This document shows positions 31,811 through 64,000 of a DNA stretch of 64,000 bases, one piece after another (position 1 is the first letter of the stretch; the number at the start of each line of letters is the position of its first letter). Below the pieces are notes generated by a model. It made no database searches. It saw only the letters and a program-made list of their open reading frames with translations, and was not told the origin of the DNA. Made by a program: the position numbers and the translations under genes. Source of the DNA: a virus (lineage: Duplodnaviria > Caudoviricetes); IMG/VR virus record IMGVR_UViG_3300037400_005963, positions 1 through 64,000 of that record; one strand, given 5' to 3'.

Positions 31811-32197
31811 TTATTCAGCTAAAAAATCTAATTCCTTTTGGAGGATATTTGCATCCTTCCGTCTATAATTCAGATCATTGAGAATATCTTTCTTAAGAGA
31901 ACCAATATAACCCGTTAGACCTAAAATTATTCCATCATTATTTGCGGGCCAAGACTCGACAGGAGCAGTAAAGTAATATAATTTTTCTCTTAAAAATACT
32001 CCAGTTGCCCTAATTACATTATCCTCTCCCTTATTATACAATAATGCAATCTGTGAGAATCCCCTACCAATATTTCTAAGATACATAACGGGAGAGTCGT
32101 TTAAGAGACCATTCTTTTCTTCAAACGATAAAAAAGAGTGATATACTTGCATATTATCTTCTAAGGTAGAGAATTCTTTTTGTCTAAACTGTATCAA
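31811..32197 (-). CDS. Leader-bearing putative internal head protein
   Basis: TTG start; N-terminus (M)IQFRQKEFS shared with the cargo family. Confidence 0.6.
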   Translation of the reverse strand: MIQFRQKEFSTLEDNMQVYHSFLSFEEKNGLLNDSPVMYLRNIGRGFSQIALLYNKGEDNVIRATGVFLREKLYYFTAPVESWPANNDGIILGLTGYIGSLKKDILNDLNYRRKDANILQKELDFLAE

Positions 32198-32216
32198 TTT
32201 CTTTCTATTTTATTAA

Positions 32217-32248
32217 AGAACTCCCCCACTTTATTACGGAGGAGTTCT
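32217..32248 (-). terminator. Stem-loop, probable intrinsic terminator
   Basis: AGAACTCC...GGAGTTCT inverted repeat in the 32198-32254 gap, flanked by A/T runs. Confidence 0.6.
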
Positions 32249-32254
32249 ATTTTT

Positions 32255-32680
32255 TTACCAACGATAAGAATTATATCCCATAGATTCCATTGCGCGTGTT
32301 TTTCTTTCTTCACGTGCAGCCTTTTCTTCAGCTTCTTTCTTTCTTCTTAAGTAAGCTCGATCTTTTGGGCTAGCTTTCTTATATCTTTTAATTTCATGAT
32401 CAACTCTTTCCTCGGTATTTTTTTTGTGCTTCTTTCCAGCAAAATATCCTGCAGTAGCACCAAGACCTGCACCAATCGTACTACCAATTAAGGCACCTCT
32501 GCTTGGATTTTTGGGGCTTGCTGCAAGACCAATAGACAAACCTGGAAGTGCACCTAATACACCACCACCAATACTTCCAGTGCGTTTAGCATGACGAACA
32601 GATCTTTTCTCCTTCAGTCGATCTTCTAGATAATCTTCATCCTCCATTTTAGAGAAGAGGTTTCTTTTTAGTATAATCAT
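32255..32680 (-). CDS. Leader-bearing glycine-zipper protein (putative internal head/ejection protein)
   Basis: MIILKRNLFS leader; GSIGGGVLGALPGLSIG...GALIGSTIGAGLGATAG. Confidence 0.65.
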   Translation of the reverse strand: MIILKRNLFSKMEDEDYLEDRLKEKRSVRHAKRTGSIGGGVLGALPGLSIGLAASPKNPSRGALIGSTIGAGLGATAGYFAGKKHKKNTEERVDHEIKRYKKASPKDRAYLRRKKEAEEKAAREERKTRAMESMGYNSYRW

Positions 32681-32682
32681 AT

Positions 32683-32949: not shown

Positions 32950-32955
32950 ATTACT

Positions 32956-33147
32956 TTATAAATTTTTTTTTCCTATAGATCCAAAAGATTTGCAGTATGA
33001 TTTATTATCTTTATTGATAAAAGTCTCCCCAAAGCTTTTTTCATAGGAACTAGAAGATTCATAGGTTTGGATATCTTCTCCATTATCGCCAATGATATGT
33101 TTATATTTTTTATGGGAAGTTATTTTTGGTTTTCTTTTTATTAACAT
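32956..33147 (-). CDS. Small hypothetical protein (63 aa; start re-assigned to ATG 33147)
   Basis: ATG at 33147 directly follows the stop of 33149..33577; MLIKRK start and two internal KSFG motifs. Confidence 0.45.
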   Translation of the reverse strand: MLIKRKPKITSHKKYKHIIGDNGEDIQTYESSSSYEKSFGETFINKDNKSYCKSFGSIGKKNL

Positions 33148-33148
33148 C

Positions 33149-33577
33149 TTAGAATTCCTCCTTCCTATCACTACATAATCCGAAAAGATAGCGATATTTT
33201 TGAGAATCTTGCATAAAAGTCTCAGTCTCACCACATAATCCTTTAAACTCTGGACCTTGTGGAATTCTTTGATAGAACTTAGTAGTCTCCTCTATGACGT
33301 GATCTATGAATTTCATAAAATCTTCATCGCCACACTCCACACACTGAACATCAGAGGGACCCATTTTTCCTAGGATTCCCATATATCCTTCAGCTATTGC
33401 ATCCTGAAAATCACTCATCAATTTGTGATATTCATCCAAGTATACGTGGATATCTTTTTTAGGTGCGGCCCAGTGAAGATTCTTACATTTATTAAGAAAT
33501 CCTGTTAAACTGCTCAAATAAGACAGAAATACGTGACGATCTTCTTCACTGTATTCCTTCTGCTTAAATTGTATCAT
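33149..33577 (-). CDS. Dps/ferritin-like protein carrying the cargo leader
   Basis: LHWAAP...IHVYLDEYH...QDAIAE matches the Dps H-W / H / D-x-x-x-E ferroxidase pattern; N-terminus MIQFKQKEYS. Confidence 0.7.
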   Translation of the reverse strand: MIQFKQKEYSEEDRHVFLSYLSSLTGFLNKCKNLHWAAPKKDIHVYLDEYHKLMSDFQDAIAEGYMGILGKMGPSDVQCVECGDEDFMKFIDHVIEETTKFYQRIPQGPEFKGLCGETETFMQDSQKYRYLFGLCSDRKEEF

Positions 33578-33599
33578 ATCTAATATATATGTTGGACCT

Positions 33600-33607
33600 C
33601 AAATATA
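33600..33607 (-). promoter_or_regulatory. Possible Bacteroidota-type -7 promoter element (TAnnTTTG) upstream of the Dps-like gene
   Basis: TATATTTG on the minus strand just after the tube terminator and ~23 nt before the ATG; no clear -33 TTTG found. Confidence 0.3.
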
Positions 33608-33660
33608 ATTTTAAATATAATTATAAGTGAGGATAAATTCATAACCTTCTCTATTAAAGA

Positions 33661-33699: not shown

Positions 33700-33719
33700 A
33701 ATTAATAGAAATTTTAATT

Positions 33720-34307: not shown

Positions 34308-34309
34308 AA

Positions 34310-36534: not shown

Positions 36535-39500
36535 TTAATCCATTGCAAGACCTCCCTTAGAAGTCTTTCCTCGAGGCGGAGTTCTATAAGTTCCACCATG
36601 TTTCTGTGAAGAATCACGATATCTATTAGTCTCCTTCTTCTTTGGCTTGGTTTGGTTATCTCTCTTACTTGGTTTCTTGGTAGAAGGTTTCTTCTGATCT
36701 TTCTTCTGATCTTTCTTCTGATCTTTCTTCTGACTCTCCTTTTTCTTATCCTTCTTCTGTTTCTCCTCCGGCTTTTTCTCCTCTTTCGGTGGAGAGTTTT
36801 TCCAAGCAGCTTCTTCTTGGGTAAATTTACTTCTATCAAGATCCCACCGTGGATTTGGATTTTCTCCAACTATACTGAAAGATAATTCCAATTCATCTCC
36901 ACTTCCTTCTATTGAACCTTTTCGTTCTTCACTCATATCCTTTAAAACACATAATAAATCATATCGATTTATGGTACTTAACTGTGGAGTAAAGACATAT
37001 ATTTTTATTCTAAATGTGATGTTTTTATATAATGCTAGACAGGGAGATGTTTTATCAACCGCCGTAATCATATTTGGATTAGGTATTCCAATCATCCTTG
37101 CACGGTCAAAAATCTCAGGACTAACTTTATAACTAACATCATTTATACGTTTATTTCCACGAGCATTGAAAATCGTATAAGAGCCATCCTTCCCATCTAT
37201 TTTACAATTCTCTACTGTAAAAAGACCATCTGGAAAAGTTTCTTGAATACCTAAAAACTTTTCAGAATTGTCATAACCATAGTACTGACTTTTATGAATT
37301 TCACTGCTATAGACACTAACATACATACTCTTCTCAAAGAACTGCCTGAAAGATTTATAACTATCGTCTACCAAAGTTAAACGAAGTTCATTGGTAAATT
37401 CAATACCTCCGGGAAAGTTAATCTCTCCATCATAAATACCAAGGGACTTCATATTCATCTTTGCGCGACTTAAATCGAAGTCTACAACTGGGAACCATCT
37501 ATTGTAAGAAGTAATTACATTATGCTGAATCCAGTTTTTAGCATTCATTTCCTCAACTGAAGGAAGATATGAGCAGTATCCATTGTCCCAACCTAAATAC
37601 GGTTCAATTGTTACTTCCCAATACGAATTTGAATCTAATGTCCAAACAGTACCGTCATCCATATCGTCCACTAAAGATCTAAATTTAGTGTATTTACCTG
37701 GATGAGACATCAATGAACTATCTATAATAGCCTGATTGAAAGTACTTGGAGTCATTATAGTTTCTTCAGAGTATCCAGAATCAGTTAACTCTTCCAAAGT
37801 AGTCCACATACCGGTTCCCCGCATGTACTGATCTTTGAAGAAATAATTAATTTCTGAATTTAAATCAGCTTTTACATCCGGATTGAATGCTTCTACGAAA
37901 GAACGCTTTAAGATACTTTTTAAATTAACCGTTCCATCTTTATTAGCTAAATTGGAGGTATCTATTTCCTTTGAGATTCTCATATTAGGATCAGTCCAAC
38001 CTAACGTATTTCTCCAGTCATTTCCTGGCGGGGTTGGTCGTTCTTTCTTTTCAAATCTCTCGTTGATAAAATCAGTTACAGTTTTTGTGTAAATATCCTG
38101 AGCTTTCCAAGGATCTTCTGCATCTCTCTTTTTTGGTCTATTAAAGGGTTTAGATTTATCTGGTTTACTCACATAGCGGCCATCATTAAAGTAGGCATTC
38201 AAATTTATAGTCGCATTCTCTACTGTGGATGCCAGAAGTCCTCTCGCATTATCTAAAATATCCCCTTCGGCAGATTTACTAAATTGAGTAACATTTGAAT
38301 CTGGTAATCGAGATCTATTAATCTTTAAGACCTCGTCTCTCATGTCCCTGGCCTTAATAAGTGCCCATAATATCATATCCACGGAATGTTCCTTCATTCC
38401 TGTGAAATTATCTAGAGTTCTCCAGAATTGTCCCTTAGTATTTAGTGCATTATATCCACGTCTAACCTCATCGGCAATAAATCTAAGATAGTCATTAGCA
38501 TTTAACATGGCAGATAAATCACCTGGCATGTGAGAATAGGTTGTATAAATTTTTCCTTCACCCTTATAATATTCCTTTGCCAAGTTTTTTATATCCTCCT
38601 CTATCCTAGTAACCTGAGTAGCAGATAGGTCTGAACTAGTAAATTTACTTAAAAGACTTTGTAATTTTTGTCCCCAACCGCCGAGATCCTTAGAGCTAGC
38701 ATAATTTAATAGATAGGAACTATATTTTTGTACGTGATGTTCCGCACGGGCCTTAAATGCATTAGTTAGTACCTCCAGATCCTTTTCTGAATCAGGATCA
38801 AAATAGTAATCGTAGTCACGGGTTTTATCACTTCTTTGACCTGCGACTGGACCCTTTACTGAATATTCCGTTCTAGGTGCGAGAGATTTAGGGAGTTTTC
38901 CGCCAGTCTTTATTTGTTCTTCTGCCCGTTTAACTAGTAAATCTTCAAAAACTTCCTTCGCCTGTTCTTCAGTTAGTGGCGTTTTTCCTCTTCTAAGATT
39001 ATCTAGAGTTATTGCAACAGAATCAGCGTCACCGTCAATTATAGGAATACCGGAGATTTCACTATTTGCACGATTTTGGATCCAGTAGTTAAACAGGTTC
39101 TCTAATTCTTCTTCGCTAAAGTTTTCACTATCTCGAATAAAATTGTCTAGAATAATGGCCAAGGGATCTACCCCAGGTTTATCCATTCCCAGGGTTCTTC
39201 CAAGCTCATCTCTCGTTTGTTCTGCTCTAGTAAGAAGTAAATTATTATATAGTTGTTCGGCTTGCTCGTCAGTTAAACTACCATTATCTCTGGCATAATT
39301 ATCTAGAGTTACCGCCAGTGGATCTATTTGAGGTTTATCCGTTCCTATAGTCGGACGAATTTTTCCATCTTCTTCTAAAGGCAAATCGGTTAGGGGGAAG
39401 TCTCTATTCTCCTCATTCCTTAACCTATCCTTAGCATCGGTATTTGGATTTTGATCGGATATAGTTCCCTGATAATCCTGTTGGGCTCTTTTTAATAGAA

Positions 39501-46248: not shown

Positions 46249-46611
46249 TTATTGAATATCTACTATTGCACAAAAATCCGCCTCATCAATAATAAAATCA
46301 ACTAATTTAACATATTGTGAAAGCGTAAGGGTCCCCATTATCTCGATAGTTCTTACTTTCTTTTTATCGCTTGAGACACCCAATCTAGTTCGAAGAAACC
46401 TAGCTTCACGTCTTAAGAAATCATCTATCCTATAAAGTTCGTCATCCATTTCTTCTGGGATATAGATAGTTGCGTTTTTAAGATCTCCAGTTATTCCAAT
46501 TACATCACTAGGTATCTTATCATAAACTTCATAGTCATCAATTCTTTCTCGATCTAGTTTATCTGTTATCTTATCTAACATAGAAAAGAATTTATTTCTT
46601 AGGACTATCAT
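46249..46611 (-). CDS. Leader-bearing putative internal head protein (paralogue-domain family)
   Basis: MIVLRNKFFS leader. Confidence 0.6.
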   Translation of the reverse strand: MIVLRNKFFSMLDKITDKLDRERIDDYEVYDKIPSDVIGITGDLKNATIYIPEEMDDELYRIDDFLRREARFLRTRLGVSSDKKKVRTIEIMGTLTLSQYVKLVDFIIDEADFCAIVDIQ

Positions 46612-47825
46612 ACTTTATCTTCGTAAATGTTTGGTTTTCCTAATTTTAAAATTTTTCCGAGAAGTATTCTAAATTCCTGGTCATTTTGAATAGCATAAGT
46701 ATACATTTCAACTTTTCCAAATTCAGACTTATTAAAGTACTTAGAAAGATCTTTCATTTTAATTTTTCCACCCTTTAACACAGTAACAATAAATAAACCT
46801 TGTGAAATGGAAATATTAAAATCAGACTTTTTCTCTCCTCTTGTATAATGGAATCCCTCAATAAATCTAAGCCGTTGTAGTGTATCTAAGAGATATTGAT
46901 TATTTATGTCACCCCTAGCACCAAGAATTCCCAACTTCTGAAGATCATTCTTATGTAATCTATCTAACCCCTGAACTATAACTCCCATTGCAGAATAAGG
47001 GATTATGTTTCTCAATTTGTCAGGAGTGAATCTTCCGACTCCTTTTAATACATTGATCAAATCTTGTTTTTCTATTCCTAGACTGTAAGTTTTTTCAACT
47101 TCACCTTCATTAGTAGTTTCATTAATTGATTCCCTAATTCTAGAATCTACTATTGCATTATTATCCAGGAGATTTACTTTAGTTGATAATGTATTAGCTA
47201 GTTCGATAATAAAATTACTTAAAACATATACATTCGTAAATGCAATATCTGCAGCATACGAATTCACACCAGAGTTAATAGTTCTGGATGAATACTCCAT
47301 TCCAAAATATTTTTTGCAATAGTAATCAAGAATTTCATTAACTTTATCTAGCTCACCGGAAGTAAGTCCTAACGTATACATAGTAACTTGATCTCGATGA
47401 ATGGCAATATTTATTTTATACTTAGATACATCTCGATCATTGAAACTAAACCTATCACTTAATTTAGTTCTTTTATCGAAAGTATCACCTACGGTTACAC
47501 CTGCCATTCTAAAAATACCAAACTGTCTGCGAATATTTCTATCAACGTCCTGATATTTAACCGAAGTCATGGGCTTATGTATATGATTTAAGAACATTTT
47601 GTGAACAATTCCTCCAATACTTCCCCATTTTGCGCCAGACCAAGCGCCTTCCATCATAGAGATATCATCACTTTTGTTCAATTTTCCATAAGCTCCTCCA
47701 ATAACGGTGCCTACTAAAGTATCTTTTCCAATTACTTCAAGAGCTCCTGGAACTTTATCCATATCTTTTGGTCCAGTATAGTGTCCTTCCTGAAGTGTAT
47801 ATTCTTTCTGTCTAAATTTTATCAT
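46608..47825 (-). CDS. Leader-bearing putative internal head protein (Gly-zipper plus two paralogue domains)
   Basis: MIKFRQKEYT leader; internal EKTYS site. Confidence 0.65.
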   Translation of the reverse strand: MIKFRQKEYTLQEGHYTGPKDMDKVPGALEVIGKDTLVGTVIGGAYGKLNKSDDISMMEGAWSGAKWGSIGGIVHKMFLNHIHKPMTSVKYQDVDRNIRRQFGIFRMAGVTVGDTFDKRTKLSDRFSFNDRDVSKYKINIAIHRDQVTMYTLGLTSGELDKVNEILDYYCKKYFGMEYSSRTINSGVNSYAADIAFTNVYVLSNFIIELANTLSTKVNLLDNNAIVDSRIRESINETTNEGEVEKTYSLGIEKQDLINVLKGVGRFTPDKLRNIIPYSAMGVIVQGLDRLHKNDLQKLGILGARGDINNQYLLDTLQRLRFIEGFHYTRGEKKSDFNISISQGLFIVTVLKGGKIKMKDLSKYFNKSEFGKVEMYTYAIQNDQEFRILLGKILKLGKPNIYEDKV

Positions 47826-47830: not shown

Positions 47831-48385
47831 TTAATTCACCATTATTGACGATAATACGGGAACACCTGCAGATGCACCCAAAAGCATCTTTCCTGCATCT
47901 TCTATAGCCGAAGGTACATTATATCTCCAAAATCTCTTTCCCCTTGAAACTAAAGGACTAGAATTTTCTACAGTTATTGGTGGAGTTTTTAGAGGTTTTC
48001 TGATAAGACTTCCTGCACCCTTAGTCACATTGCTATAAGCAGGAACACTTTTCTTTAATGCATTTTCAACGGGCTTTGCTACAAGTGCAGTTCCTGGAAG
48101 AGGCACAGCTAATCCAGCAGTTGCAATGGGATTTTCAACGACGGTAGCTATGGTATTTCTAGCTGCCTGTTTAGGATCAGTTATAACTAAATTCTTAGCG
48201 TACTTAATCTTATTTTTCTGTTCAATGGTCTTTCTCATTACCCCTACCCTGCTTAAAGCAGTCTTTTCTTTTGAGGCAGGTAAAAATGCATCCTTAATCT
48301 TGGCTCCCAAGTTTCCAATTTGATTTTTCTTAAATAGTAACTTAGTGCCAAGGGAAGAATATTCTTTTTGTCTAAATTTTATCAT
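47831..48385 (-). CDS. Leader-bearing basic protein
   Basis: MIKFRQKEYS leader; hydrophobic segments. Confidence 0.6.
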   Translation of the reverse strand: MIKFRQKEYSSLGTKLLFKKNQIGNLGAKIKDAFLPASKEKTALSRVGVMRKTIEQKNKIKYAKNLVITDPKQAARNTIATVVENPIATAGLAVPLPGTALVAKPVENALKKSVPAYSNVTKGAGSLIRKPLKTPPITVENSSPLVSRGKRFWRYNVPSAIEDAGKMLLGASAGVPVLSSIMVN

Positions 48386-52188: not shown

Positions 52189-52932
52189 TTAACCTACTTC
52201 TACAATGTAAACAGGGTATTTATTCTCAACGAAGGATTTTATAATTGAGCTAACTTGTTTAACATTCTTAGAAGCATTCTTCTCCGTTGTTATAGTAATC
52301 TCGTTAAATCGATTATTCTGTGTACTAGTTTGAATTCTTCCACCGCTTTGTTTTACTATTTTATTAACTAAGTTCTTGAGATTTTTATCATCTATAGAAT
52401 TTATAACGGTTTGTAATTCTCCACTAGCTGAGGATAATACTATACATACCTTAGTAGGTAGTTCGTTTGCTTTCTTAGGATCAAAAGTATAATCTTGTCC
52501 TTCTTTATAACCTAGATACTTAAGCTCTCGTTCAAGGGGCTTGGTTAATCTTTGATTAGTATGTTTTTGACTCCACTTTTCATTTAATGTTTTAACCATA
52601 CCAACTACTGAACCTAAAGCAGCACCAAGTAAAGTAGTGCCGGCTATAAATAAAAACTTCTGATCACTAGATGTTTTCCTGCCAGGTACTTCATTATAGG
52701 TCTTTTTAATATTTCCTTGCTTATCTGGATTAGTAGTTCCGGTATATACCCTTTTAGTGCTATGTTCGTAAAGAGAATTATATTTTTTTGATCCAGGTAC
52801 AAATTTAGGAACCCTTGAGGGAATCAATTTAGAGGAAGATCCCACTAAACCAATGCCGGCACCCATAGTAGCACCCTTTCTCATATCCTCCAGAATATAA
52901 TTACTAAAATCCTTCTGTCGGAATATAATCAT
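52189..52932 (-). CDS. Leader-bearing Gly-zipper plus paralogue-domain protein
   Basis: MIIFRQKDFS leader; GATMGAGIG and LLGAALGSVVG. Confidence 0.65.
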   Translation of the reverse strand: MIIFRQKDFSNYILEDMRKGATMGAGIGLVGSSSKLIPSRVPKFVPGSKKYNSLYEHSTKRVYTGTTNPDKQGNIKKTYNEVPGRKTSSDQKFLFIAGTTLLGAALGSVVGMVKTLNEKWSQKHTNQRLTKPLERELKYLGYKEGQDYTFDPKKANELPTKVCIVLSSASGELQTVINSIDDKNLKNLVNKIVKQSGGRIQTSTQNNRFNEITITTEKNASKNVKQVSSIIKSFVENKYPVYIVEVG

Positions 52933-53505: not shown

Positions 53506-54204
53506 TTAAATTATTGCGTTTAACTTGAAACCTTCCTCCATTAAGTTTTTGGGAATTTCAAGTTCTGTTCCTATTTTTACTTTTAATTCTACGTGAAATA
53601 TATTGTTCCCCGGTTGAGTAGCAATATATCCAGTTTCATTTTCATACTTATCGCAGTATGAATCAAGTATCTTATCTATTTTTCTAACTTCATTCGATCT
53701 AGGATTAACAAATAATATCTCTAATAATCCTTGATGATAAAGAAGATTTACTACATATTTATGTGGATTCTGACCTCCCGCTATATCTAAATCTTGCAGG
53801 AGATTCGTAGTAGAGTACTCAGAGTCTCCGTGGAAATCGGAGTCTTCTGCTTTTTTAACTAACCACGACTTAACTTCACCTTCATTGCCTAGAATACCTT
53901 CGAGCGAACTTGAAGATTTATTATCTCTTAAAGAAAAAGTTTTCATCTTAGTGAAAATACTCTTAGGTTGAGTTCGTTTAATTGTCTTATTATTTTCCAT
54001 ATTTAAACTACTTAATTCCTCAGTTGCATTTTTTAAACTGCCAGTCAACCTTCTCATCTCTTTAAGTTGCTCTTCTTGATATTTTCTATCACTATTTCGT
54101 CTTTTTGTATTTATAATGAGGTTAGTTCCGGCAATTCCCAAAGAGGCGGCTGGTACTCCATATTTTATCCCCTTATCTATATATCTTTTAGTACGAGTAT
54201 CCAT
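53506..54204 (-). CDS. Putative internal head protein (hydrophobic N-terminal peptide plus paralogue domain)
   Basis: Internal MKTFS site; IDKILDSYCDKY matches VNEILDYYCKKY of 46608..47825. Confidence 0.6.
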   Translation of the reverse strand: MDTRTKRYIDKGIKYGVPAASLGIAGTNLIINTKRRNSDRKYQEEQLKEMRRLTGSLKNATEELSSLNMENNKTIKRTQPKSIFTKMKTFSLRDNKSSSSLEGILGNEGEVKSWLVKKAEDSDFHGDSEYSTTNLLQDLDIAGGQNPHKYVVNLLYHQGLLEILFVNPRSNEVRKIDKILDSYCDKYENETGYIATQPGNNIFHVELKVKIGTELEIPKNLMEEGFKLNAII

Positions 54205-54619
54205 CTCTTTGAGTCATATTTGTTTTCCAATCAGCACGCTCTCTCCTCTTTGCCTGTTTTTGAGCATAAACTAATCGTTTATTATAAAAAGCGTTATCTT
54301 CGGCTTCTTTTTTTCGTTGGGATTGAGTATACAGACCTCCACCTATTGCACCAAGGTACGCTCCGGTTTTTGCTCCACCAGCAAAACCATTAAGACGTTT
54401 ACTAGCCCAGTTTCCAGTACCTCTACCTGCAACAGTTCCTAGAATACTTCCAGCAGCACCAAGAGCAATTGCTCCTGTGGCAGCAGATCTAAGCGTTGGA
54501 CCTACAAATGCAGTTTTTTTCTTCTTCTCAGCTAGGATATCAGAATCTTTCATCCTCTTAAGATTATCAGTATCATCCCAACGAGTGAAGTTTTTTCGTT
54601 TTAATATATAAATTGCCAT
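54188..54619 (-). CDS. Leader-bearing glycine-zipper protein
   Basis: MAIYILKRKNFT leader; AATGAIALGAAGSILG...GAYLGAIGGG. Confidence 0.65.
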   Translation of the reverse strand: MAIYILKRKNFTRWDDTDNLKRMKDSDILAEKKKKTAFVGPTLRSAATGAIALGAAGSILGTVAGRGTGNWASKRLNGFAGGAKTGAYLGAIGGGLYTQSQRKKEAEDNAFYNKRLVYAQKQAKRRERADWKTNMTQRDGYSY

Positions 54620-54624: not shown

Positions 54625-55971
54625 CTAGTTATTAATTTCATTACCTCCCTGTTTAGGTTGGACTGCCTTTTCTTTAGAGTTCTGATACTTATATGCATCA
54701 GGATCTATTTTTTCCATCCCCTTTCTCATAGTATTCATAGCTTTAGTGTAAAGAACACTTCCTATTCCAATTGCAGGAGCTAATGCAACTATATTTGCCT
54801 TGGTGGGATGATTTTTTATCCAATTTCCAGCCTTGCTCAGAGAACTAATATTAGAATTTCCAAGACTCTTTCCAAAATTTTGTACATTCTTTGTCCCAAA
54901 TGAACCGAAAGAGCCTATTTTCATAGCACCGCCAGAAAGTGTCCTGCCCCTATGAGAGTTGAATGTTTGCCAACCAGATTTAGTTTTCTGTGGAATACTT
55001 TTTATTGTGCTTCCAATACCTGACAAAATACTAAACTGTTTTTGTCCTTGTCCTGGTTTTAAGGGCTTTTTTAATTTAGGACTTGGTTGAGATGTCGCTG
55101 CTATTTGATTCTTCAGCTGCTTTTTCTCGGCTTGATAAGATAAAAGACGTGGTGCTTCGAAACCAAATGTGATCGCAGGACCTAAAGCTTTTCCTAAAAC
55201 ACTATAAGCTCTTTGTTGACTATTCTGTTGAACTAGGTTTCCAGAATTATCTACTCCGAGATTATTCTTTTTCATATCTCGCTGAATAAATTTATTAACT
55301 AAATAACCGGCTGCAGTAATTTTAGCAGCTCCTTTAATAGTTCCTTTTATGGAGGAATTTATACCAGCAGCTTTACATGCTTTTCCCAAATCTCTACCTG
55401 CAACTCTCAGCTTTGCCCAATTCGGATTCAGAGATGCATAATTTCTTTGTGAAAATAGAAATTCGCTTTCTTTTTTCTTCTTCTTTTGTTGCTCTATTGC
55501 TTGTTGATCTGGTGGAAGTAAAACTTCAGCAGCTTTCTGGGCTGTATCAGGACTATTCTTCTCTGCTATTTTATTTAGTAGCTCATTTTGTTTTTGAACC
55601 GCTCTAGTTTGTCGATCCTGTGCAGCAACCTGTTTTCCATTCATTTTCTCCTGTTTCTTCATCTGATTGCTACTTTGTATCATCTGAGCGCCAGTTGTAC
55701 CAACCATAAGAGCTCCACTAGCTAATGCAATAGGAATACCAAAAGACTTTTCATACTGTCTACTTAATTCCCTAGTCTTCGCATTCATGGCCCTGGTTAC
55801 TTTATCCATTTCCTCTATCGTAGCCTTTCCCTGCTTTTCTGCTTCTTTCCCCTCTTTATGAGTTTGAATCATTCCATATGCAGGCAAGCCAACGAGAAGA
55901 CCATTTACGGCTAGATTTCCAGCAGACATTTTAGGGGATGCACTGAATATCTTTTTTCTAAATTTAGTCAT
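54625..55971 (-). CDS. Leader-bearing putative polyprotein of basic amphipathic peptides (448 aa; start re-assigned to ATG 55971)
   Basis: MTKFRKKIFS start after the stop of 55994..56296; internal EKSFG, QRNYA, QRAYS and QKQFS sites. Confidence 0.65.
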   Translation of the reverse strand: MTKFRKKIFSASPKMSAGNLAVNGLLVGLPAYGMIQTHKEGKEAEKQGKATIEEMDKVTRAMNAKTRELSRQYEKSFGIPIALASGALMVGTTGAQMIQSSNQMKKQEKMNGKQVAAQDRQTRAVQKQNELLNKIAEKNSPDTAQKAAEVLLPPDQQAIEQQKKKKKESEFLFSQRNYASLNPNWAKLRVAGRDLGKACKAAGINSSIKGTIKGAAKITAAGYLVNKFIQRDMKKNNLGVDNSGNLVQQNSQQRAYSVLGKALGPAITFGFEAPRLLSYQAEKKQLKNQIAATSQPSPKLKKPLKPGQGQKQFSILSGIGSTIKSIPQKTKSGWQTFNSHRGRTLSGGAMKIGSFGSFGTKNVQNFGKSLGNSNISSLSKAGNWIKNHPTKANIVALAPAIGIGSVLYTKAMNTMRKGMEKIDPDAYKYQNSKEKAVQPKQGGNEINN

Positions 55972-55993: not shown

Positions 55994-56296
55994 TTATTGA
56001 TCTTCGTAGCCTGAAGCTCTCTTAAGACCTTTACCAAGACCTTTTGTAGCGGCTGCACCAATACCGGCACCTATCAGCCAACCAAGGGGACCTCCAATTG
56101 CACTACCGATAACTCCAGTTCCCTGAAGAGCAGTTCCAATTGCACCTCCCAAATAGTGTCCGCCGAGAAGTCCACCACCAATAGCAGCAGGGGTAGAATC
56201 TAGTGCATTACCTACACCACCTGCTACGCCACCTGCAGTATCCTTCACGCCCTCTACAAGACTATAAGTCTTTCTTTTTAAAATATAAGTTGCCAT
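55994..56296 (-). CDS. Leader-bearing glycine-zipper protein
   Basis: MATYILKRKTYS leader; body is almost entirely GxxxG repeats. Confidence 0.7.
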   Translation of the reverse strand: MATYILKRKTYSLVEGVKDTAGGVAGGVGNALDSTPAAIGGGLLGGHYLGGAIGTALQGTGVIGSAIGGPLGWLIGAGIGAAATKGLGKGLKRASGYEDQ

Positions 56297-56302: not shown

Positions 56303-56515
56303 TTAATCGTCTTTTAAATCACTCCATCTAATTCCCCTGGATACTTCTAAACTCAATTTTCTTTGTTCCTTCCTAAGATCCCCTATTTTTGATAGCTCTC
56401 TATGAGAAGTTTCCATTCTTCCAAGTCTATCGAGATCTGTATCATATTTTCTTCCTCGAATAAAACCAGGAGAATTTGTATTTAGAATTTTTTGAGAGAA
56501 TCTTTTAATTATCAT
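56303..56515 (-). CDS. Small leader-bearing basic protein
   Basis: MIIKRFS start; tight packing. Confidence 0.55.
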   Translation of the reverse strand: MIIKRFSQKILNTNSPGFIRGRKYDTDLDRLGRMETSHRELSKIGDLRKEQRKLSLEVSRGIRWSDLKDD

Positions 56516-57084
56516 GCATCCAGAAGTTTTATACTATAATTTAGTCCAAAGGGTAGATAATTAAGTGCATCTATTGCATCCCTAATAGTCTTAAACTCTA
56601 GAACTAGTGATCGTTTTGTCTTCGAATACTCAATGGCTTCACCTAGAATTTCTTGAACTTTTCTTCTAAATTCTATATTAGTGTAACCATCAGTACTAAA
56701 TGTGGGTGGTGCACCACCCTTTTTATTATTATTATTGCCAAAAGTTTTTTCTCTTTCTGGCATTAAACTACCTTTCAGATTTAAAGATAAATTACCTAAT
56801 TTTTGATCATAAACTTTCAAGCTAGGTAATCTAACCTCGTCAGGTAATTTTGCCTTCGCACCTATTTTCAAATACATTCGATATTTTTCCCTTCCGAACA
56901 TAGAGGTGCTAATCGTAAATTTCTCAACTACGACATTATTTCCTCTTAAAATAGGAATCAATGCACTGCGGTTAATGATCGGAAATTTTTTTTGTCGATC
57001 ACCGCCAGTCAATTTTAGAATTTCCTGATAGAGGGACTTCATTGCGTCGTATTCTGAGAACGTCTTTTCTCTGAAATGTATCAT
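56512..57084 (-). CDS. Leader-bearing putative internal head protein
   Basis: MIHFREKTFS leader; internal REKTFG. Confidence 0.65.
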   Translation of the reverse strand: MIHFREKTFSEYDAMKSLYQEILKLTGGDRQKKFPIINRSALIPILRGNNVVVEKFTISTSMFGREKYRMYLKIGAKAKLPDEVRLPSLKVYDQKLGNLSLNLKGSLMPEREKTFGNNNNKKGGAPPTFSTDGYTNIEFRRKVQEILGEAIEYSKTKRSLVLEFKTIRDAIDALNYLPFGLNYSIKLLDA

Positions 57085-57461
57085 CTTTTCTTATCTACTA
57101 TCGAAAGGTTATATTTTGTTCCTAAAACCGATATAACATCTAGAGCAATCCCAAGATGATCAGTTTCTGCAGTAACCGTTCTTTCTTTTTTATCAGTATT
57201 GGTAATTCTCATGCTACACAAATCACCTAGAAGCTTCTGTGTATAGGAATAAAATTCTTTATCCTTAACCGTAATCTGATAGTATCCATATTCATTTTGA
57301 ACAAACTCCATAAGTACCATAGCTTTAGAGTTTATCCTACTAATCGGTTCTGCTTCTCTAGGAGTTATCGAATTATATGAAACGCCCTCTTTATCGAGAT
57401 AATCTTTAGCGTCCTCAATAAGATTTACCTCTTTTGATTTTTTTGGTCTAAACGTTATCAT
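57081..57461 (-). CDS. Putative internal head protein (paralogue-domain family; partial leader)
   Basis: MITFRPKK start lacks the F/Y-S end; C-terminus similar to 56512..57084. Confidence 0.55.
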   Translation of the reverse strand: MITFRPKKSKEVNLIEDAKDYLDKEGVSYNSITPREAEPISRINSKAMVLMEFVQNEYGYYQITVKDKEFYSYTQKLLGDLCSMRITNTDKKERTVTAETDHLGIALDVISVLGTKYNLSIVDKKR

Positions 57462-58602: not shown

Positions 58603-59157
58603 TTAAGGGGTTGGAGGTGTAGCATTTATCTGCACCATTCGCTGCAACCTATCCTTCATTTTGGTATTTACTGCAGAATTATCTAGCTTAGACACCTTAT
58701 CTCCTACTTCTATGGAAGATTTAGTGAGATCTGCCTTTGCTTTATTAACCTCAGCTGAATTCCTCATGACAGATTGAACATCTTTTCCCCATAAACTTGT
58801 ACCATTTACCTTTTCCAATTGGTTTTTTGCAAAAAGTTGGCCCGATCTTTTCGCTGCCTCGTCTGTTACGGTTTTTCCTGCAGCTGCTGCACTATCTTTT
58901 ATAATGTTTGTTTGAGCATTAGCAAGACCCTTCATTCCGGCATTTTGCATCCCAGCACTATTTAAAGTCTTACCAGCACGCATTAAGAAAGTATTTGAAC
59001 TTTTCTGAAGACCTGAGCCTAACATTCCTTTCTGTGCACCCATAAAACCAAGTGCGGCAGTTCCAGCAAGTGCTCCACCAATGGCAAGTTTTTTACCTAA
59101 TCCCGAATTCTTATCATCACTCGAGAAGGTTCGTCTTTTCAATATATAAATTGCCAT
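58603..59157 (-). CDS. Leader-bearing basic protein with hydrophobic helix
   Basis: MAIYILKRRTFS; GKKLAIGGALAGTAALGFMGAQKGMLG; paralogue of 59173..59598. Confidence 0.65.
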   Translation of the reverse strand: MAIYILKRRTFSSDDKNSGLGKKLAIGGALAGTAALGFMGAQKGMLGSGLQKSSNTFLMRAGKTLNSAGMQNAGMKGLANAQTNIIKDSAAAAGKTVTDEAAKRSGQLFAKNQLEKVNGTSLWGKDVQSVMRNSAEVNKAKADLTKSSIEVGDKVSKLDNSAVNTKMKDRLQRMVQINATPPTP

Positions 59158-59172: not shown

Positions 59173-59598
59173 TTAATTAAGCCACCTATTTAATTGTATA
59201 TCACCGGCTCTTTGTCCTATAGCAGTAGCTTTTTTTGTCAATTCTCCTGTGGTTAACTTTTTTGGATTATTAGTCTGTAATCTTTTTAGTGCAAAACTAG
59301 TATTTCCTTTTCCATAGCCTACAGAAGCAGTAGACATAGCATTATCACCAAATTTCTGAAGAGTTTTGTTATTATACTTTTGGCCAAATTTATTTATTGA
59401 AGATCCAATATTACCTAGGGCTTTATTTGTTCCTATCTGAGCTTTTGCACCAAATACTCCTCTCTGTGCACCGTATGCAGCAAGAGCAGTTCCACCGAGT
59501 ACACCAGCACCAACTGCTAATTTCTTTCCAAAACTAGATTTTTTATTCTCTTGTGCAGGTTCAGTATAGACTTTTCTTTTTAAAATATAAGTTGCCAT
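59173..59598 (-). CDS. Leader-bearing basic protein with hydrophobic helix
   Basis: MATYILKRKVYT; GKKLAVGAGVLGGTALAAYGAQRGVFG. Confidence 0.65.
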   Translation of the reverse strand: MATYILKRKVYTEPAQENKKSSFGKKLAVGAGVLGGTALAAYGAQRGVFGAKAQIGTNKALGNIGSSINKFGQKYNNKTLQKFGDNAMSTASVGYGKGNTSFALKRLQTNNPKKLTTGELTKKATAIGQRAGDIQLNRWLN

Positions 59599-59601: not shown

Positions 59602-59775
59602 TTAATCATCTTCATCTTTTCCTTTTCCTGTAAGGAAATTTCCTAGGCTTTTTCCTGCCTTTTTTATTTTTGTTTGTGTTGGTAGGGGGACAGGACTGAT
59701 ATCGTCAACCATCCCATCAATTCCCTCTCGAAGATCACCAACCATACCAAACTTTTTTGTCCTTTTTACTAACAT
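59602..59775 (-). CDS. 57-aa leader-bearing protein (missing from the ORF track)
   Basis: Manual translation MLVKRTKKFGMVGDLREGIDGMVDDISPVPLPTQTKIKKAGKSLGNFLTGKGKDEDD; fills the gap exactly and shares its leader with 59778..60026. Confidence 0.7.
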   Translation of the reverse strand: MLVKRTKKFGMVGDLREGIDGMVDDISPVPLPTQTKIKKAGKSLGNFLTGKGKDEDD

Positions 59776-59777
59776 GG

Positions 59778-60026
59778 TTAATCCTCTTCTTCTTTATTCC
59801 CCATATTTCCGGTTAAAGCATCTTTCGTAGCACCGGCAACCTTAGCGGTACCAATTCCTGCACCGATAAGAGCAGCTGTGCCCGTTAACGCAGCAGTACC
59901 TTTTGTGCCTGCCCAAATTCTTTGTCCAGTATTCATGGTAGCGCCCTTGCCATAACCCATCGATCGTCCAATGCTTTTAAGACCAAAAGTTGGTATACCG
60001 AAATTCTTTGTTCTTTTTACCAACAT
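59778..60026 (-). CDS. Leader-bearing small Gly/Ala-rich protein
   Basis: MLVKRTKNFG; TAALTGTAALIGAGIG. Confidence 0.65.
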   Translation of the reverse strand: MLVKRTKNFGIPTFGLKSIGRSMGYGKGATMNTGQRIWAGTKGTAALTGTAALIGAGIGTAKVAGATKDALTGNMGNKEEED

Positions 60027-60146: not shown

Positions 60147-61568
60147 TTAAAGACCTAAACCAAAGGTTACTTTCTGAACGAGTTCAGGAGCCATGTAGCG
60201 AACACCTTCCTGATAGTAAATACCACTTGCCATTTGAGTTGGGTTGTTGTAGTTACCAATAGTTGGGGTGTCAGTCAAAGGCATATAGATACCACGAGCC
60301 AGAGGAGCCATTTGGCCGTCCTGAGTCTTGTGAATAGCATAGAATGTACCCTTGCCTTCTTCTTCCTGGATGTCAGTTGAACGAAGTACTGGAATACCAT
60401 TGTACCAGCCAAGGAGGTCATTGATGTAAGTCATCTTAGTGTTCTTCTCCCACTTGCCGATGATACCACCCTTTTGGAACTGATTTGAAGCCTGGTTACC
60501 AGCTACATAAGCAGTAGTGTTAACACCCTTAACGGCCTTAGTTGCCAAAGAAGTTTCAACGTTGATCAGATAAGCATCGAACAAGTCTACTCTTGAACGA
60601 TAATCGTAGAAAGTAGCCTGCATTTCAGCCTTAGTAAGATCAAGGTCAGTCATAACATCGCCACGATAACCATCCTCAAGAGTCTTAACCAACTTGTAGT
60701 TAATAGTCTTGGTGTAGATCTCGCGGAGCTTAGTGAACAAGAAGGTAGCCATGTCAGAACCAGTGGCCTTCTTCATTGCGCCGAGAGCTGCAATGTTATA
60801 CTCAGCAACGAGCATATCAGGAACTGTGTTAAGAGCAATCTGTTGCATCTTAGCAATGAATCTCTTATCGTTTGCATGTGGACTGTCAGCACCCTTAGTG
60901 CAGCTAGGAGTACCAGTTACGTCTTCCTTACCTACGATCTTAATTGAAGTAGGAGCAGCAGCTAAATTGAACTCAACCTTACCGTTGAGGTAATTAACAG
61001 TACCGCTAGTCATAACGCCAGCAACTGCCATGAAAGAACCCTGACCATTATCGATCAATTCAGCCTTGCTACCGTCACCGTTCTCGATCTTAACGCGAAT
61101 AGTACCGGGGATAAGCTTTCTACCAATGATAGAAGTAACCTGCTGAGCAGCATCTACATCGAGTTCAAAGTAACCCATAGTGTTGATGTCCTGATAGTTA
61201 TCTGGACCCAGGTTAGGAATAACCTCACGAAGATCGGTTACACCAAGAACGTCGAACCAGTAGAACAGACCGTTAGGCTGATCAAAGTCGCGCTCAATTG
61301 ACATATAGCCAGCAAAAGAGCTAACATAAGAAGCAACTGAAGCGTTGAAGTACTGAGTGCTCAGAAGTGGAGTCTCTGCATAGCCAGAGAAGGTCTTCTG
61401 GAAAAGGTTACCTTCGCCCATACCGAGCATTTCTCTCATCTCGTCATTACGAGAGAACATCTTTGCGTATTCACGGCCACGAAGATTAGCGTCTTCGTTA
61501 GAAACCGAGCTAGCCCTCAAAGCCGAAGCCATCTGAGGGGTATTCATAAGTTCATTATAGTAATTCAT
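60147..61568 (-). CDS. Major capsid protein (T4 gp23-like HK97 fold)
   Basis: 473 aa; strongest codon bias in the window; ERDFDQPNGLFYW and APLARGIYMPL...NNPTQMASGIYY parallel gp23 motifs; insertion domain IPGTIRV...SGTVNYLNG; downstream of the scaffold. Confidence 0.85.
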   Translation of the reverse strand: MNYYNELMNTPQMASALRASSVSNEDANLRGREYAKMFSRNDEMREMLGMGEGNLFQKTFSGYAETPLLSTQYFNASVASYVSSFAGYMSIERDFDQPNGLFYWFDVLGVTDLREVIPNLGPDNYQDINTMGYFELDVDAAQQVTSIIGRKLIPGTIRVKIENGDGSKAELIDNGQGSFMAVAGVMTSGTVNYLNGKVEFNLAAAPTSIKIVGKEDVTGTPSCTKGADSPHANDKRFIAKMQQIALNTVPDMLVAEYNIAALGAMKKATGSDMATFLFTKLREIYTKTINYKLVKTLEDGYRGDVMTDLDLTKAEMQATFYDYRSRVDLFDAYLINVETSLATKAVKGVNTTAYVAGNQASNQFQKGGIIGKWEKNTKMTYINDLLGWYNGIPVLRSTDIQEEEGKGTFYAIHKTQDGQMAPLARGIYMPLTDTPTIGNYNNPTQMASGIYYQEGVRYMAPELVQKVTFGLGL

Positions 61569-61609
61569 TGTGTAAATTAAGTAATTAATTCGTTTATGTT
61601 TTATATAAT

Positions 61610-61639
61610 GAAGGCTCCTTGATTTCTCTCAGAGCCTTC
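61610..61639 (-). promoter_or_regulatory. Hairpin between the scaffold and capsid genes (mRNA processing/stability or attenuation element)
   Basis: GAAGGCTC...GAGCCTTC inverted repeat without a U-tract. Confidence 0.45.
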
Positions 61640-61648
61640 GGGTTTATA

Positions 61649-64000
61649 TTATTTCTTGAAATTGAGCCAAGTAGCTAATGTGTCTTCTGAGTCTGAGAAA
61701 GATTTCTCAGTAAACTGAGCTTCCTGAAGGTCTGGCTCTGCATCCTCTGCAGGAGCGGCTTTAGCTTCCATAATAGTAGCGGCAGCTTCCTCTGCAGCAG
61801 CCTTAATACTTTGAACAGCGGCAAGAGCTTTATCCTCTACCTCTTCTACAGTATGAGCAGCTGGAGCAACAGGATTACCGTTCTCGTCTACTTCTGCAGG
61901 TGCCTGAGCAGAAACTTCTTCAGCTGGAGCCTGTGGAGCAACAACGGGTTGAGCTACGGGAACAGCAACTGGTTTAACTGGAGCAGCCTGTGAGGCTTGT
62001 ACATCAGCAAAGAACTTATCTAAGGTAGAATAGTGCTTCTCCTCAGATTCATAATTGTTCCACTCCTCTTTTGAAATGAAACCATCATGGTTCTTGTCGA
62101 TTCTATCAAACTCATCAGTGCTCTTACCAGCTTTTCTCCACTCTTCCTTAGAAATTTGACCGTCCTTGTCCTCATCAACCTTGTCAAACTTATCTTCATC
62201 AACGTCTTCCTTATCCTCTACGGCAAGGTCTTCAGTCAACTTGTCAGCTTCCTCCTCAGAGATCTTAGTGAGTTCCATATCCTCTTCATCCTTAAGAACT
62301 GCCTTGGTGAATTCGCCAGTTTCTTTATCTTCTACTACAGCAGTTTCTGAATCTACTGGAGTAATTACTTCAGTATCATTCTCAATCTGCTCACCTTCCT
62401 CGATAGCCTTTTCAATTTCCTCTTGATCAGCTTCCTCAGAGAAGATTCTTTCCATGTAGGCAGTAAATTCCTCACCTTTAGAGAAGAATCTGGTTTCAGC
62501 TTCGTTACAGAAACTGTATTCCTTTTCCTCTTCCTTCTCGTCTTCATCAACGTCTTCCTTATCCTCTACGGCAAGGTCTTCAGTCAACTTGTCAGCCTCT
62601 TTCTCTGATATCTTAGTGAGTTCCATATCGTCCTCATCTTTAAGGACGGCTTTAGTGAATTCACCAGTCTCTTTATCTTCTACTACGGCAGTCTCAGCAT
62701 CTACTGGAGTAATTACTTCAGTGTCATTCTCGATCTGTTCGCCATCCTCAATAGCTTTTTCGATTTCGTCCTGATCGGCTTCCTCAGAGAAGATTCTTTC
62801 CATGTAGGCAGTAAATTCCTCACCTTTAGAGAAGAATCTGGTTTCAGCTTCGTTACAGAAAATACTGTATTCCTTTTCCTCTTCCTTCTCGTCTTCATCA
62901 ACTGCACTATCCTCATCAACTGCAATATCCTGAGTTAAGTTCTCAGCTTCTTCTTCACTAATTGGATGAACATTGATAGTATCTTCGTCAATGATCTTAA
63001 CCTTAGAGAAATCACCGTTCTCTTTATCTTCTACAACTGCAGTCTTAGAGTCAATTGGGGTAATGATTTCAGTGTCAGTCTCAATTTCATCTCCATTTTC
63101 GATTGCATCCTCGATTGCATTTTGTTCAGATTGCTCATTAAAGAGACGTTCCATGTAAGCATTTATTTCCTTACCTCTAGAGAAGAATTTAGTTTCAGTC
63201 TCATCACAGAAAACACTGTATTCTTTTTCTTCCTCATCATCTTTGGGGCACTCACATTCAGCCTTACCACACTCTGGGCAAGTTTCTTCCTCATCATCAT
63301 CTGCGAGAGGCTTAAACTCGTCTGACTCTACCTCCATTACTTTGAGGTCACTGGTAAGATCATCAAACTCTTCTTCATCAATCTGCTCAAGGCGAACATC
63401 ATCACCTGAAATAGTAGCCTTGGTAAACTCATCATTTACTTTATCCTCTACTACTGCAGTCTGAGCATCGACTGGAGTGATTATTAATTCATCTGTTTCA
63501 ATCTCATCTCCCTCACGAACAGCATCCTCAATTTCATCTTGAAGATCAGAAATTGAATTAACTGCGTCAGAGAATAATTTGCACATAACGGCAGTATTAT
63601 TCGAGAAAATTCTAGTTGCAAATACTGGTGCACCTACAAAATCCGAATATTCCTTCTGAAGCTCTGGTTCCTCTTCAGGATCAACATTGGCACCAAGACC
63701 ATCAATTAAACGCATGGCATAATCACGAGCATCTTCTTGATTATCAAAAATCTCAACTGCATCTACACCATCCTCAGTTAACTGATTTTTAAGTTGCTCT
63801 GCGCTATCTTCGTCGTACTCCTGAGCATCAACAATAATGTGATCGTAAGGTTGAACACCAACTACAAAGAGGGGCATGTAACCTTCTGGAGCATCTTCAT
63901 TGCTAAAATTCTTGCTATCTAATTCAGTTACAGTCATATCATCATCATCTAAAACAACCTTTGCCTGATCACCAGTAGTTTCATTGGTAACCACTACAGC
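61649..64000 (-). CDS. Prohead core / scaffolding protein, 5'-truncated; acidic with tandem repeats, EF-hand pair and Cys cluster
   Basis: Frame is open to the window edge (AVVVTNETT...); extremely D/E-rich; directly upstream of the capsid gene; 14 [KR]-x-[FY]-S motifs. Confidence 0.75.
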   Translation of the reverse strand, partial: AVVVTNETTGDQAKVVLDDDDMTVTELDSKNFSNEDAPEGYMPLFVVGVQPYDHIIVDAQEYDEDSAEQLKNQLTEDGVDAVEIFDNQEDARDYAMRLIDGLGANVDPEEEPELQKEYSDFVGAPVFATRIFSNNTAVMCKLFSDAVNSISDLQDEIEDAVREGDEIETDELIITPVDAQTAVVEDKVNDEFTKATISGDDVRLEQIDEEEFDDLTSDLKVMEVESDEFKPLADDDEEETCPECGKAECECPKDDEEEKEYSVFCDETETKFFSRGKEINAYMERLFNEQSEQNAIEDAIENGDEIETDTEIITPIDSKTAVVEDKENGDFSKVKIIDEDTINVHPISEEEAENLTQDIAVDEDSAVDEDEKEEEKEYSIFCNEAETRFFSKGEEFTAYMERIFSEEADQDEIEKAIEDGEQIENDTEVITPVDAETAVVEDKETGEFTKAVLKDEDDMELTKISEKEADKLTEDLAVEDKEDVDEDEKEEEKEYSFCNEAETRFFSKGEEFTAYMERIFSEEADQEEIEKAIEEGEQIENDTEVITPVDSETAVVEDKETGEFTKAVLKDEEDMELTKISEEEADKLTEDLAVEDKEDVDEDKFDKVDEDKDGQISKEEWRKAGKSTDEFDRIDKNHDGFISKEEWNNYESEEKHYSTLDKFFADVQASQAAPVKPVAVPVAQPVVAPQAPAEEVSAQAPAEVDENGNPVAPAAHTVEEVEDKALAAVQSIKAAAEEAAATIMEAKAAPAEDAEPDLQEAQFTEKSFSDSEDTLATWLNFKK
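62193..62902. repeat. Near-identical tandem direct repeat (348 and 351 bp units) inside the scaffold gene
   Basis: TCTTCATCAAC anchor at 62193, 62541 and 62892; more diverged copies continue towards 63550. Confidence 0.9.

Follow-up and report, generated by a model that had tools for sequence, protein, structure and literature searches.

In phage T4, the internal proteins IPI, IPII and IPIII as well as Alt carry a capsid targeting sequence (CTS) that is processed by gp21 (PMC9026906), and the concept of such a targeting tag has been known since 1996 (cited in PMC9026906). The 10-residue tag of IPIII is divided in function, residues 4 and 7 serving in targeting and residues 8 and 10 in processing, and basic proteins with CTS-like tags are also found in T4 relatives (PMC9026906). 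Here we describe a comparable N-terminal leader in a stretch of 64,000 nucleotides from an uncultured virus (Duplodnaviria, Caudoviricetes; IMG/VR record IMGVR_UViG_3300037400_005963, positions 1 to 64,000). This stretch, referred to below as the window, is the first 64 kb of a single contig of 156,520 bp with a CheckV completeness of 42%, and the source is probably a jumbo phage with a genome of roughly 370 kb (CheckV estimate). About 30 otherwise unrelated small proteins on the contig begin with a common tag of nine to eleven residues. By sequence, structure models and analogy, the leader is probably a T4-type capsid-targeting and processing tag in which a Lys/Arg-x-Phe/Tyr rule, with Ser to follow, replaces the hydrophobic-x-Glu rule of T4.

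The leader resembles the T4 CTS in being a tag of about 10 residues on otherwise unrelated and mostly basic proteins, in ending in a consensus that also marks the scaffold, the protease and the capsid N-terminus (from which about 60-65 residues are removed in T4), and in appearing bipartite, with a putative targeting side at its N-terminus and a putative processing side at its C-terminus; the predicted protease fold and the order of head genes match as well. By contrast, its predicted cut motif is Lys/Arg-x-Phe/Tyr and then Ser rather than Leu/Ile-x-Glu. Further differences from T4 lie in the number of tagged genes (about 30 on a 42%-complete contig versus a handful), in a protease with a conserved C-terminal domain of ~160 residues behind four copies of the motif, and in a scaffold that is a 982-residue repeat protein with an EF-hand pair.

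The other systems that invite comparison share fewer of these properties. Phages phiKZ, 201phi2-1 and SPN3US (gp175, gp245) are, as the source of this contig probably is, jumbo phages with a gp21-related protease, and N-terminal propeptides are lost from many of their head and ejection proteins; propeptides of the SPN3US group have multiple sites, with Ser preferred at P1', the residue following the cut (PMC10052503). However, these phages cut after Glu (S/A/G-x-E), and their propeptides are mostly long (20-254 residues) instead of forming a uniform short tag. That the chemistry here would be unlike that of T4 and phiKZ had been part of the original prediction, made from the letters of the window, and it is borne out by the consensus [KR]-x-[FY]-[STGA] as against cutting after Glu in those phages (PMC9026906). 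The herpesvirus assemblins (MEROPS S21) share the fold class (Z 8-10) and the format P3-x-P1 followed by Ser, and, as would hold here, they are proteases fused to a scaffold-related C-terminal part from which they release themselves, but they are enzymes of eukaryotic viruses with Ala at P1, a hydrophobic P3 and no short N-terminal tags on many cargo proteins. In Staphylococcus phage 80alpha (PMC5744158), a short N-terminal leader is reportedly removed after Phe and before a small residue; there, the enzyme is a host cysteine protease, the motif copies that of ribosomal protein L27, and only capsid and scaffold proteins carry the leader. No paper on the present motif or on a Phe/Tyr-specific prohead protease was found among the searchable papers. 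Relative to that literature, what is new is the proposed Lys/Arg-x-Phe/Tyr rule, with Ser to follow, for a protease of predicted gp21 fold, the number of tagged genes and the size of the uncultured clade that carries them.

Results

A common leader at the start of small genes in the structural block

Every gene between 31.8 and 78.6 kb lies on the minus strand. Genes are named here, as in the original prediction, by their low (stop-codon) end, so that the leaders stand at the high-coordinate ends. All 16 leader-type N-termini quoted in that prediction were found letter for letter, and the three genes that it had set apart as weaker cases are indeed weak: the gene at 32956 has a half-leader and only from an internal Met, that at 57081 has M-I-x-F-R-x-K without [FY]-S, and that at 53506 has a degenerate N-terminus in this genome, with a full leader in some orthologues. 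The series extends beyond the window to about 78.6 kb, with leader-type starts at 64600, 66794, 67369, 67918, 68455, 71570, 72085, 72724, 74925, 77928 and 78239.

A crude gene call over the whole contig gave 199 open reading frames (ORFs). The core motif [KR]-x-[FY]-[STGA] occurs within the first 14 residues in 26 of the 48 ORFs of the 31.8-78.7 kb block versus 4 of 151 elsewhere (Fisher p = 1.7e-15), with a chance expectation of about 3.8% per protein; the motif is thus far from equally frequent at the N-termini of genes outside the block. A strict full-leader pattern was also applied to all six frames, at each Met with 25 or more codons behind it; of its 26 hits, 3 lie outside the block and 23 inside it, all of the latter on the minus strand; 22 of these 23 coincide with called gene starts and the remaining one opens an uncalled ORF of 36 codons (70965-71075). 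It had also been claimed that no tail, neck or baseplate gene begins in this way, and indeed the presumed tail and baseplate side at 2.9-31.8 kb, with 17 called minus-strand genes, has no such start. The features of the window and of its flank on the contig are as follows.

31811..32197, minus strand: 128-residue gene product with full leader, TTG start; core motif at residues 7-10
32255..32680, minus strand: basic protein of 141 residues; variant leader with basic residues shifted by one, in which the strict core pattern fails
32956..33147, minus strand: half-leader on a small ORF that opens at an internal Met; K-S-F-G twice in its interior
33149..33577, minus strand: 142-residue gene product with full leader
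46249..46611, minus strand: 120-residue gene product with full leader
46608..47825, minus strand: 405-residue gene product with full leader, Thr at P1'
47831..48385, minus strand: basic protein of 184 residues with full leader
52189..52932, minus strand: 247-residue protein with full leader; homologues in 8/8 related loci, 7 with a leader-like N-terminus
53506..54204, minus strand: 232-residue protein with degenerate N-terminus; full leaders in some orthologues
54188..54619, minus strand: basic protein of 143 residues with an 11-residue leader of the M-A-x-Y subtype; other subtypes on the same body in orthologues
54625..55971, minus strand: basic protein of 448 residues with leader and 4 internal sites; 2-5 sites in orthologues
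55994..56296, minus strand: Gly/Ala-rich protein of 100 residues, M-A-x-Y leader subtype
56303..56515, minus strand: 70-residue protein with a leader shortened to 7 residues
56512..57084, minus strand: core protein of 190 residues with leader; further cut-type motif in a hypervariable linker, 9/9 genomes
57081..57461, minus strand: core protein of 126 residues with only the putative address half (M-I-x-F-[RK]-x-K) and without [FY]-S, 9/9 genomes
58603..59157, minus strand: basic protein of 184 residues, M-A-x-Y leader subtype; paralogue of the gene at 59173
59173..59598, minus strand: basic protein of 141 residues, M-A-x-Y leader subtype
59602..59775, minus strand: 57-residue protein with leader ending in F-G
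59778..60026, minus strand: Gly/Ala-rich protein of 82 residues with leader ending in F-G
60147..61568, minus strand: major capsid protein of 473 residues, probably of a distant gp23 family; K-M-F-S at nucleotides 61452-61463 and K-T-F-S at 61386-61397
61649..64000, minus strand: acidic scaffold-like protein of 982 residues, of which the window holds residues 200-982; the gene runs to 64597
Contig 64600-65400, minus strand, outside the window: zinc-ribbon scaffold-like protein of 266 residues
Contig 65397-66656, minus strand, outside the window: predicted prohead protease of 419 residues
Contig 69187-70875, minus strand, outside the window: gp20-like portal of 562 residues

The leader appears to consist of two halves

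With the leaders aligned on their aromatic residue (P1), the consensus is Met at P9, Ile at P8, Leu/Phe at P6, Arg/Lys at P5 (92%), Lys at P3 (96%), Phe (77%) or Tyr at P1 and Ser/Thr/Gly/Ala at P1', where these four residues are given in all leaders by the search pattern and Ser is the commonest. In this genome 16 of 26 leaders have the aromatic residue at position 9, as do 74 of the 161 unique leaders found in relatives; a subtype with two extra N-terminal residues has it at position 11. Internal copies of the motif share with the leaders only Lys/Arg at P3, Phe/Tyr at P1 and Ser at P1' (87%); they are acidic at P4-P7, where the leaders instead continue into the conserved P5, P6 and P8 residues. 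Because the N-terminal positions are specific to leaders while internal sites share only P3, P1 and P1', the tag seems to be built from a leader-specific N-terminal half and a cut-type C-terminal half. This division is supported by three sets of proteins, since the 126-residue family keeps the first half only in 9 genomes, orthologous bodies bear interchangeable leader subtypes, and the 190-residue protein keeps a cut-type motif in its linker in 9 genomes. The 126-residue core protein (57081-57461) may accordingly be targeted without being trimmed. In the alignment of the 190-residue core protein (alignment A5), two conserved domains are joined by the hypervariable linker with its cut-type motif (9/9 genomes), and judged from this arrangement the protein is probably split in two inside the head.

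An account that dispenses with the address would make the leader a removable propeptide, leaving the bodies to decide incorporation, for example by charge attraction to the scaffold; one purpose of such a propeptide could be to hold membrane-active or DNA-binding proteins inactive up to their entry into the prohead. The account fits the fact that [KR]-x-[FY]-S is the sole element common to leaders and internal sites, and charge alone could recruit mostly basic tagged proteins to an extremely acidic scaffold. However, a bare cut site would call for neither the conservation of Ile2, Phe/Leu4 and Arg/Lys5 in leaders only nor the frequent placement of the aromatic residue at position 9, and the upstream positions are retained even in the family that has no cut site. 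In T4, moreover, the equivalent N-terminal residues carry targeting (PMC9026906). We therefore consider a propeptide without address unlikely, though worth keeping in mind, and favor a tag that combines address and cut site.

The same tetrapeptide marks the head-assembly proteins

The original prediction held that the terminal tetrapeptide of the leader also riddles the scaffold and closes the N-terminal arm of the capsid protein, and both statements agree with the counts. The 982-residue protein (61649-64597) has 19 internal sites versus 1.2 in composition-preserving shuffles, and its eight orthologues have 11-20 sites each. This scaffold-like protein is made of repeats of ~115 residues and contains 299 Asp+Glu versus 86 Lys+Arg, for a net charge of about -213. 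The 266-residue protein encoded between protease and scaffold carries two tandem copies of the motif at its N-terminus and five more inside, with 5-8 sites in orthologues, and has a four-Cys zinc-ribbon (weak Pfam hits). In the protease itself, four sites lie in the linker (residues 191-263) and are invariant in seven orthologues that are 40-60% identical. As for the capsid protein, K-M-F-S at residues 36-39 and K-T-F-S at residues 58-61 are invariant in 8 orthologues, and the second of them closes a variable N-terminal piece of ~60 residues beyond which the sequence is almost invariant. Taken together, these four head-assembly proteins contain 33 [FY]-S dipeptides, of which 29 have K/R at -2, versus 22 of 247 outside the block (p = 2e-21).

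Two further observations were made on these proteins. The 982-residue scaffold contains a canonical pair of EF-hand loops (62057-62194, minus strand) above the cut-offs of three Pfam EF-hand models, a calcium-binding module that is unusual in a phage scaffold and that might couple scaffold behavior to divalent cations. The portal (contig 69187-70875) carries [QE]-K-x-F-G at residues 9-13, conserved here and in three relatives, and by its sequence the portal N-terminus may also be trimmed.

A protease of predicted gp21 fold in a T4-like head module

A prohead protease gene had been expected upstream of the scaffold, outside the window, and a candidate was located there, just beyond the window edge (65397-66656), with a predicted gp21/assemblin fold. 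The AlphaFold2 (AF2) model of its N-terminal domain has a predicted local distance difference test (pLDDT) value of 89, and its best match in the PDB is T4 gp21 (5jbl; Foldseek E 2e-4, probability 1.0). Comparison with 5jbl by VIA gave Z 12.1 and a root-mean-square deviation of 2.7 A over 129 residues, with herpesvirus proteases at Z 8-10 and unrelated folds at 4.4 or less. The N-terminal 185 residues have no Pfam, PHROG or PDB sequence match, and when PDB sequences were searched with profiles of the capsid-protein and protease alignments, there was no hit. Among 1.8 billion representatives, 180 relatives of the protease were found, including free-standing forms of ~165 residues. In an alignment of 23 diverse homologues, His49, Arg52 and Asp73 are invariant and Ser134 nearly so (at least 90%), making His49 and Ser134 candidate catalytic residues. 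Many database proteins of 200-500 residues contain the C-terminal domain (residues 257-400) by itself or preceded by a different N-terminal part, which suggests a common domain for binding scaffold or capsid, as in phages with nested protease and scaffold.

When the protease domain was modeled in complex with the first 40 residues of a tagged protein, a score of 0.41 was obtained against 0.02 for the best of 3 controls, a low pass of a kind that is more often wrong than right unless the guess is already likely; among solved complexes 58 of 80 attain the mark, compared with 2 of 110 mismatched pairs, and passes at or below 0.60 come from 7 of the 80 and from both mismatches. The runs agreed in at least 27% of contacts and the partner had a pLDDT of at least 44. 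The prediction thus gives weak support to a pairing of protease and leader.

The remaining head genes were assigned through distant relatives. The 562-residue protein (69187-70875) adjoins Atlas clusters in which 85-93% of members have Portal_T4, and the capsid protein adjoins clusters with Gp23 in 22-39% of members. The capsid protein has no direct Pfam hit; its C-terminal 190 residues align by hhalign to the capsid protein of E. coli phage IME392 (96% probability, E 3e-9), which itself passes the Pfam Gp23 (PF07068) cut-off. The portal therefore looks gp20-like and the capsid protein gp23-like. Pfam and PHROGs searches of ten large structural proteins found nothing significant, with two faint PHROG matches of unknown function and one sub-threshold Pfam match. 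The genes run in the order portal, five small tagged proteins, protease, two scaffold-like proteins and capsid protein. This order mirrors that of the T4 head genes, 20-67-68-21-22-23.

The distribution of the motif also bears on the idea that it is a docking motif without proteolysis, by which scaffold, protease, capsid N-terminus and tagged proteins all bind one partner such as the capsid interior or the portal. Repeated short motifs are typical of docking in disordered acidic proteins, and the weak complex score shows binding at most, not cutting. However, the sites lie where T4-type systems cut, namely in the first 14 residues of small head-module proteins, at the junction between protease domain and C-terminal domain, at a depth of ~60 residues in the capsid protein and repeatedly along the scaffold. 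In addition, the small residue after the aromatic, mostly Ser at internal sites, is a typical P1' preference, as for SPN3US gp245 (PMC10052503), and a protease of predicted gp21 fold is encoded beside these genes. Docking alone is therefore an improbable explanation compared with a tag that is also cut.

The motif is spread through a large group of uncultured phages

Leaders are found at syntenic genes in eight IMG/VR loci whose capsid proteins are 70-80% identical. A degenerate DNA pattern for one leader subtype retrieved 78 IMG/VR stretches, mostly from contigs of 100-400 kb, and the core motif is present in 316 of 996 ORFs of these loci. Relatives of the capsid protein number at least 637, on contigs of up to 427 kb, and contigs of 200-430 kb carry relatives of the phage. 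Even in phages with a protease only 25-28% identical, the motif recurs in N-terminal tags, whose address half is less uniform, as well as in the scaffold, the protease linker and the capsid N-terminus. One such locus (L089, a 17.8-kb JGI contig of 3300039431) has a protease of 28% identity and encodes two scaffold-like proteins; these are 502 and 715 residues long, and each has a leader-like N-terminus and 8-10 cut motifs. The capsid protein of this locus has the first site at residues 10-13. Searches of GenBank phages by tblastn with the protease and a 596-residue protein found nothing, and no close GenBank phage was identified.

Tagged proteins and neighboring genes

Apart from their leaders, the tagged proteins are mutually unrelated except for two pairs. 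A net basic composition is found in 22 of 27 of them (73 Lys+Arg versus 28 Asp+Glu in one example), and family scans of 30 gave few hits (glycine-zipper, DUF5856 and zinc-ribbon), leaving most unmatched. The view of these proteins as a diverse cargo library stands as regards diversity; it needs refining as regards variability, since many are conserved core genes present in 8/8 relatives. The tagged set is thus partly a conserved core, comparable to T4 gp67/gp68 and the internal proteins, and not only variable cargo.

Two giant genes lie nearby. The first encodes a protein of 3879 residues (19134-30773, minus strand) whose residues 1686-2212 hold phage tail lysozyme and GDSL lipase/acylhydrolase domains as well as a weaker one of glucosaminidase type; it has neither a leader nor motif enrichment, and its domains suggest a probable role in the tail or in ejection, with modules for degrading the wall. 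The second, among the tagged genes, encodes an acidic protein of 3093 residues (36535-45816, minus strand) with no Pfam match. It has 1 cut-type motif versus 6.2 expected in shuffles (P = 0.019), a modest depletion on which we do not build and which could reflect avoidance of the protease by a giant head-entering protein. A promoter and terminator scan of 52-64 kb showed no excess of promoter-like sites over shuffles.

Gene starts, host signals and two remaining explanations

Of 165 genes, only 21 are preceded by a Shine-Dalgarno-like 4-mer, and the sequence ahead of the starts is rich in A/T, with A at -3. Gene starts of this kind suggest a Bacteroidota-type host.

These signals bear on the possibility that the leaders mimic a host N-terminal extension that is cut by a host enzyme. 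The leader of L27 is about 9 residues long and ends in Phe followed by a small residue, with Prp cutting after the Phe, and the present leader resembles this extension formally. According to two reports (PMC5744158, PMC9405229), host Prp processes the capsid and scaffold leaders of Staphylococcus phage 80alpha. However, the present phage encodes its own protease of predicted gp21 fold with the motif in its own linker, the leaders have a basic P3 that the L27 type lacks, and no Prp-like gene was found on the contig (no PF04327 match). The gene starts point to Bacteroidota, in which Prp is not known to be used. Processing by a host enzyme is therefore very unlikely, and the phage protease remains the favored candidate.

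A nucleotide-level signal, by which a conserved 5' coding sequence would aid translation initiation of late genes in a host lacking Shine-Dalgarno sequences, would suit the A/T-rich leaders and gene starts, but it was rejected because codons vary freely while residues are kept (Ser as TCT, TCA, TCG, AGT and AGC, spanning both TCN and AGY; Arg as AGA, AGG and CGA), indicating conservation of the leader at the protein level, and we hold it to be highly improbable also given that the capsid protein, the most highly expressed late gene, has no leader and that the tetrapeptide is enriched deep inside proteins.

Discussion

The interpretation of the leader as part of a capsid-loading and maturation system, advanced in the original prediction, held in every part that can be checked in silico. 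By analogy with T4, the address half M-[IL]-x-[FLK]-[RK]-x-K would bring each protein into the core of the assembling prohead, probably to the strongly acidic scaffold. The cut half, [KR]-x-[FY] and then S/T/G/A, would be the recognition site of the phage's own gp21-like serine protease, which would chop the 982- and 266-residue scaffold proteins, release itself from its own C-terminal domain and shorten the capsid protein by about 60 residues. The scissile bond most likely lies between Phe/Tyr and Ser, giving a basic P3, an aromatic P1 and a small P1'. We place it after the aromatic residue because the spacing P3-x-P1 then matches that of T4 (L/I-x-E), the phiKZ group and the herpesvirus assemblins (V/L-x-A before S), and because a small P1', often Ser, is common to SPN3US gp245 and the assemblins. 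The tagged proteins, most of which are small and strongly basic, would remain in the head together with the DNA, and part of them would probably exit with it at infection. Given the basic nature of these proteins and the strongly negative scaffold, charge may help to keep cargo in the core until the scaffold is degraded.

Several observations weigh against this interpretation. The rarity of the motif outside the structural block was assessed on less than half of the genome. In the 448-residue family, several orthologues have Phe, Trp or Ile after the leader aromatic, so that either P1' is tolerant or those leaders are uncut. The conservation of many tagged proteins as core genes is as compatible with structural or prohead-core roles as with cargo, and some may be prohead-core or structural parts like T4 gp67/gp68 instead of cargo. 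The 419-residue protein has no match to Peptidase_S77 (PF03420) in Pfam, nor was any found on the contig in six frames, and only 1 of the 23 protease homologues has a faint match (E = 0.043); because this family is unmatched by sequence, the enzyme assignment rests on the predicted fold and on the conserved His and Ser. Finally, the AF2 model of the capsid protein, built from a 9-row alignment, has a pLDDT of 44, at which the site cannot be placed on the fold.

The proteases of gp21/assemblin fold have been described as cutting after Glu (T4 and the phiKZ group) or after Ala (herpesviruses), and a branch with Phe/Tyr at P1 and a basic P3 would, if true, widen this range. The Glu-, Ala- and Phe-type lineages would then form a natural series for studying how the S1 and S3 pockets are re-tuned. 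The tag also allows the probable head-internal proteome of uncultured jumbo phages to be predicted, a proteome that otherwise needs virions. The prediction covers about 30 proteins in this phage and hundreds in its relatives, and candidates for injection can be sought among them. If the nine-residue tag alone suffices for loading, as the T4 tag does, it would provide a second packaging handle of different chemistry. A fuller picture, which we put forward tentatively as a real possibility and not as our expectation, is that a sizeable and abundant uncultured clade of phages of 100-430 kb (at least 637 capsid relatives and 180 protease clusters at 50% identity) has re-tuned its T4/herpes-type maturation protease to an aromatic P1 and a basic P3. 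Such phages would use a portable address of nine residues, a packaging handle orthogonal to the T4 tag, to load at least 30 proteins per virion, among them membrane proteins with glycine zippers and strongly basic proteins associated with DNA; a part of this load may be injected as a first-wave arsenal.

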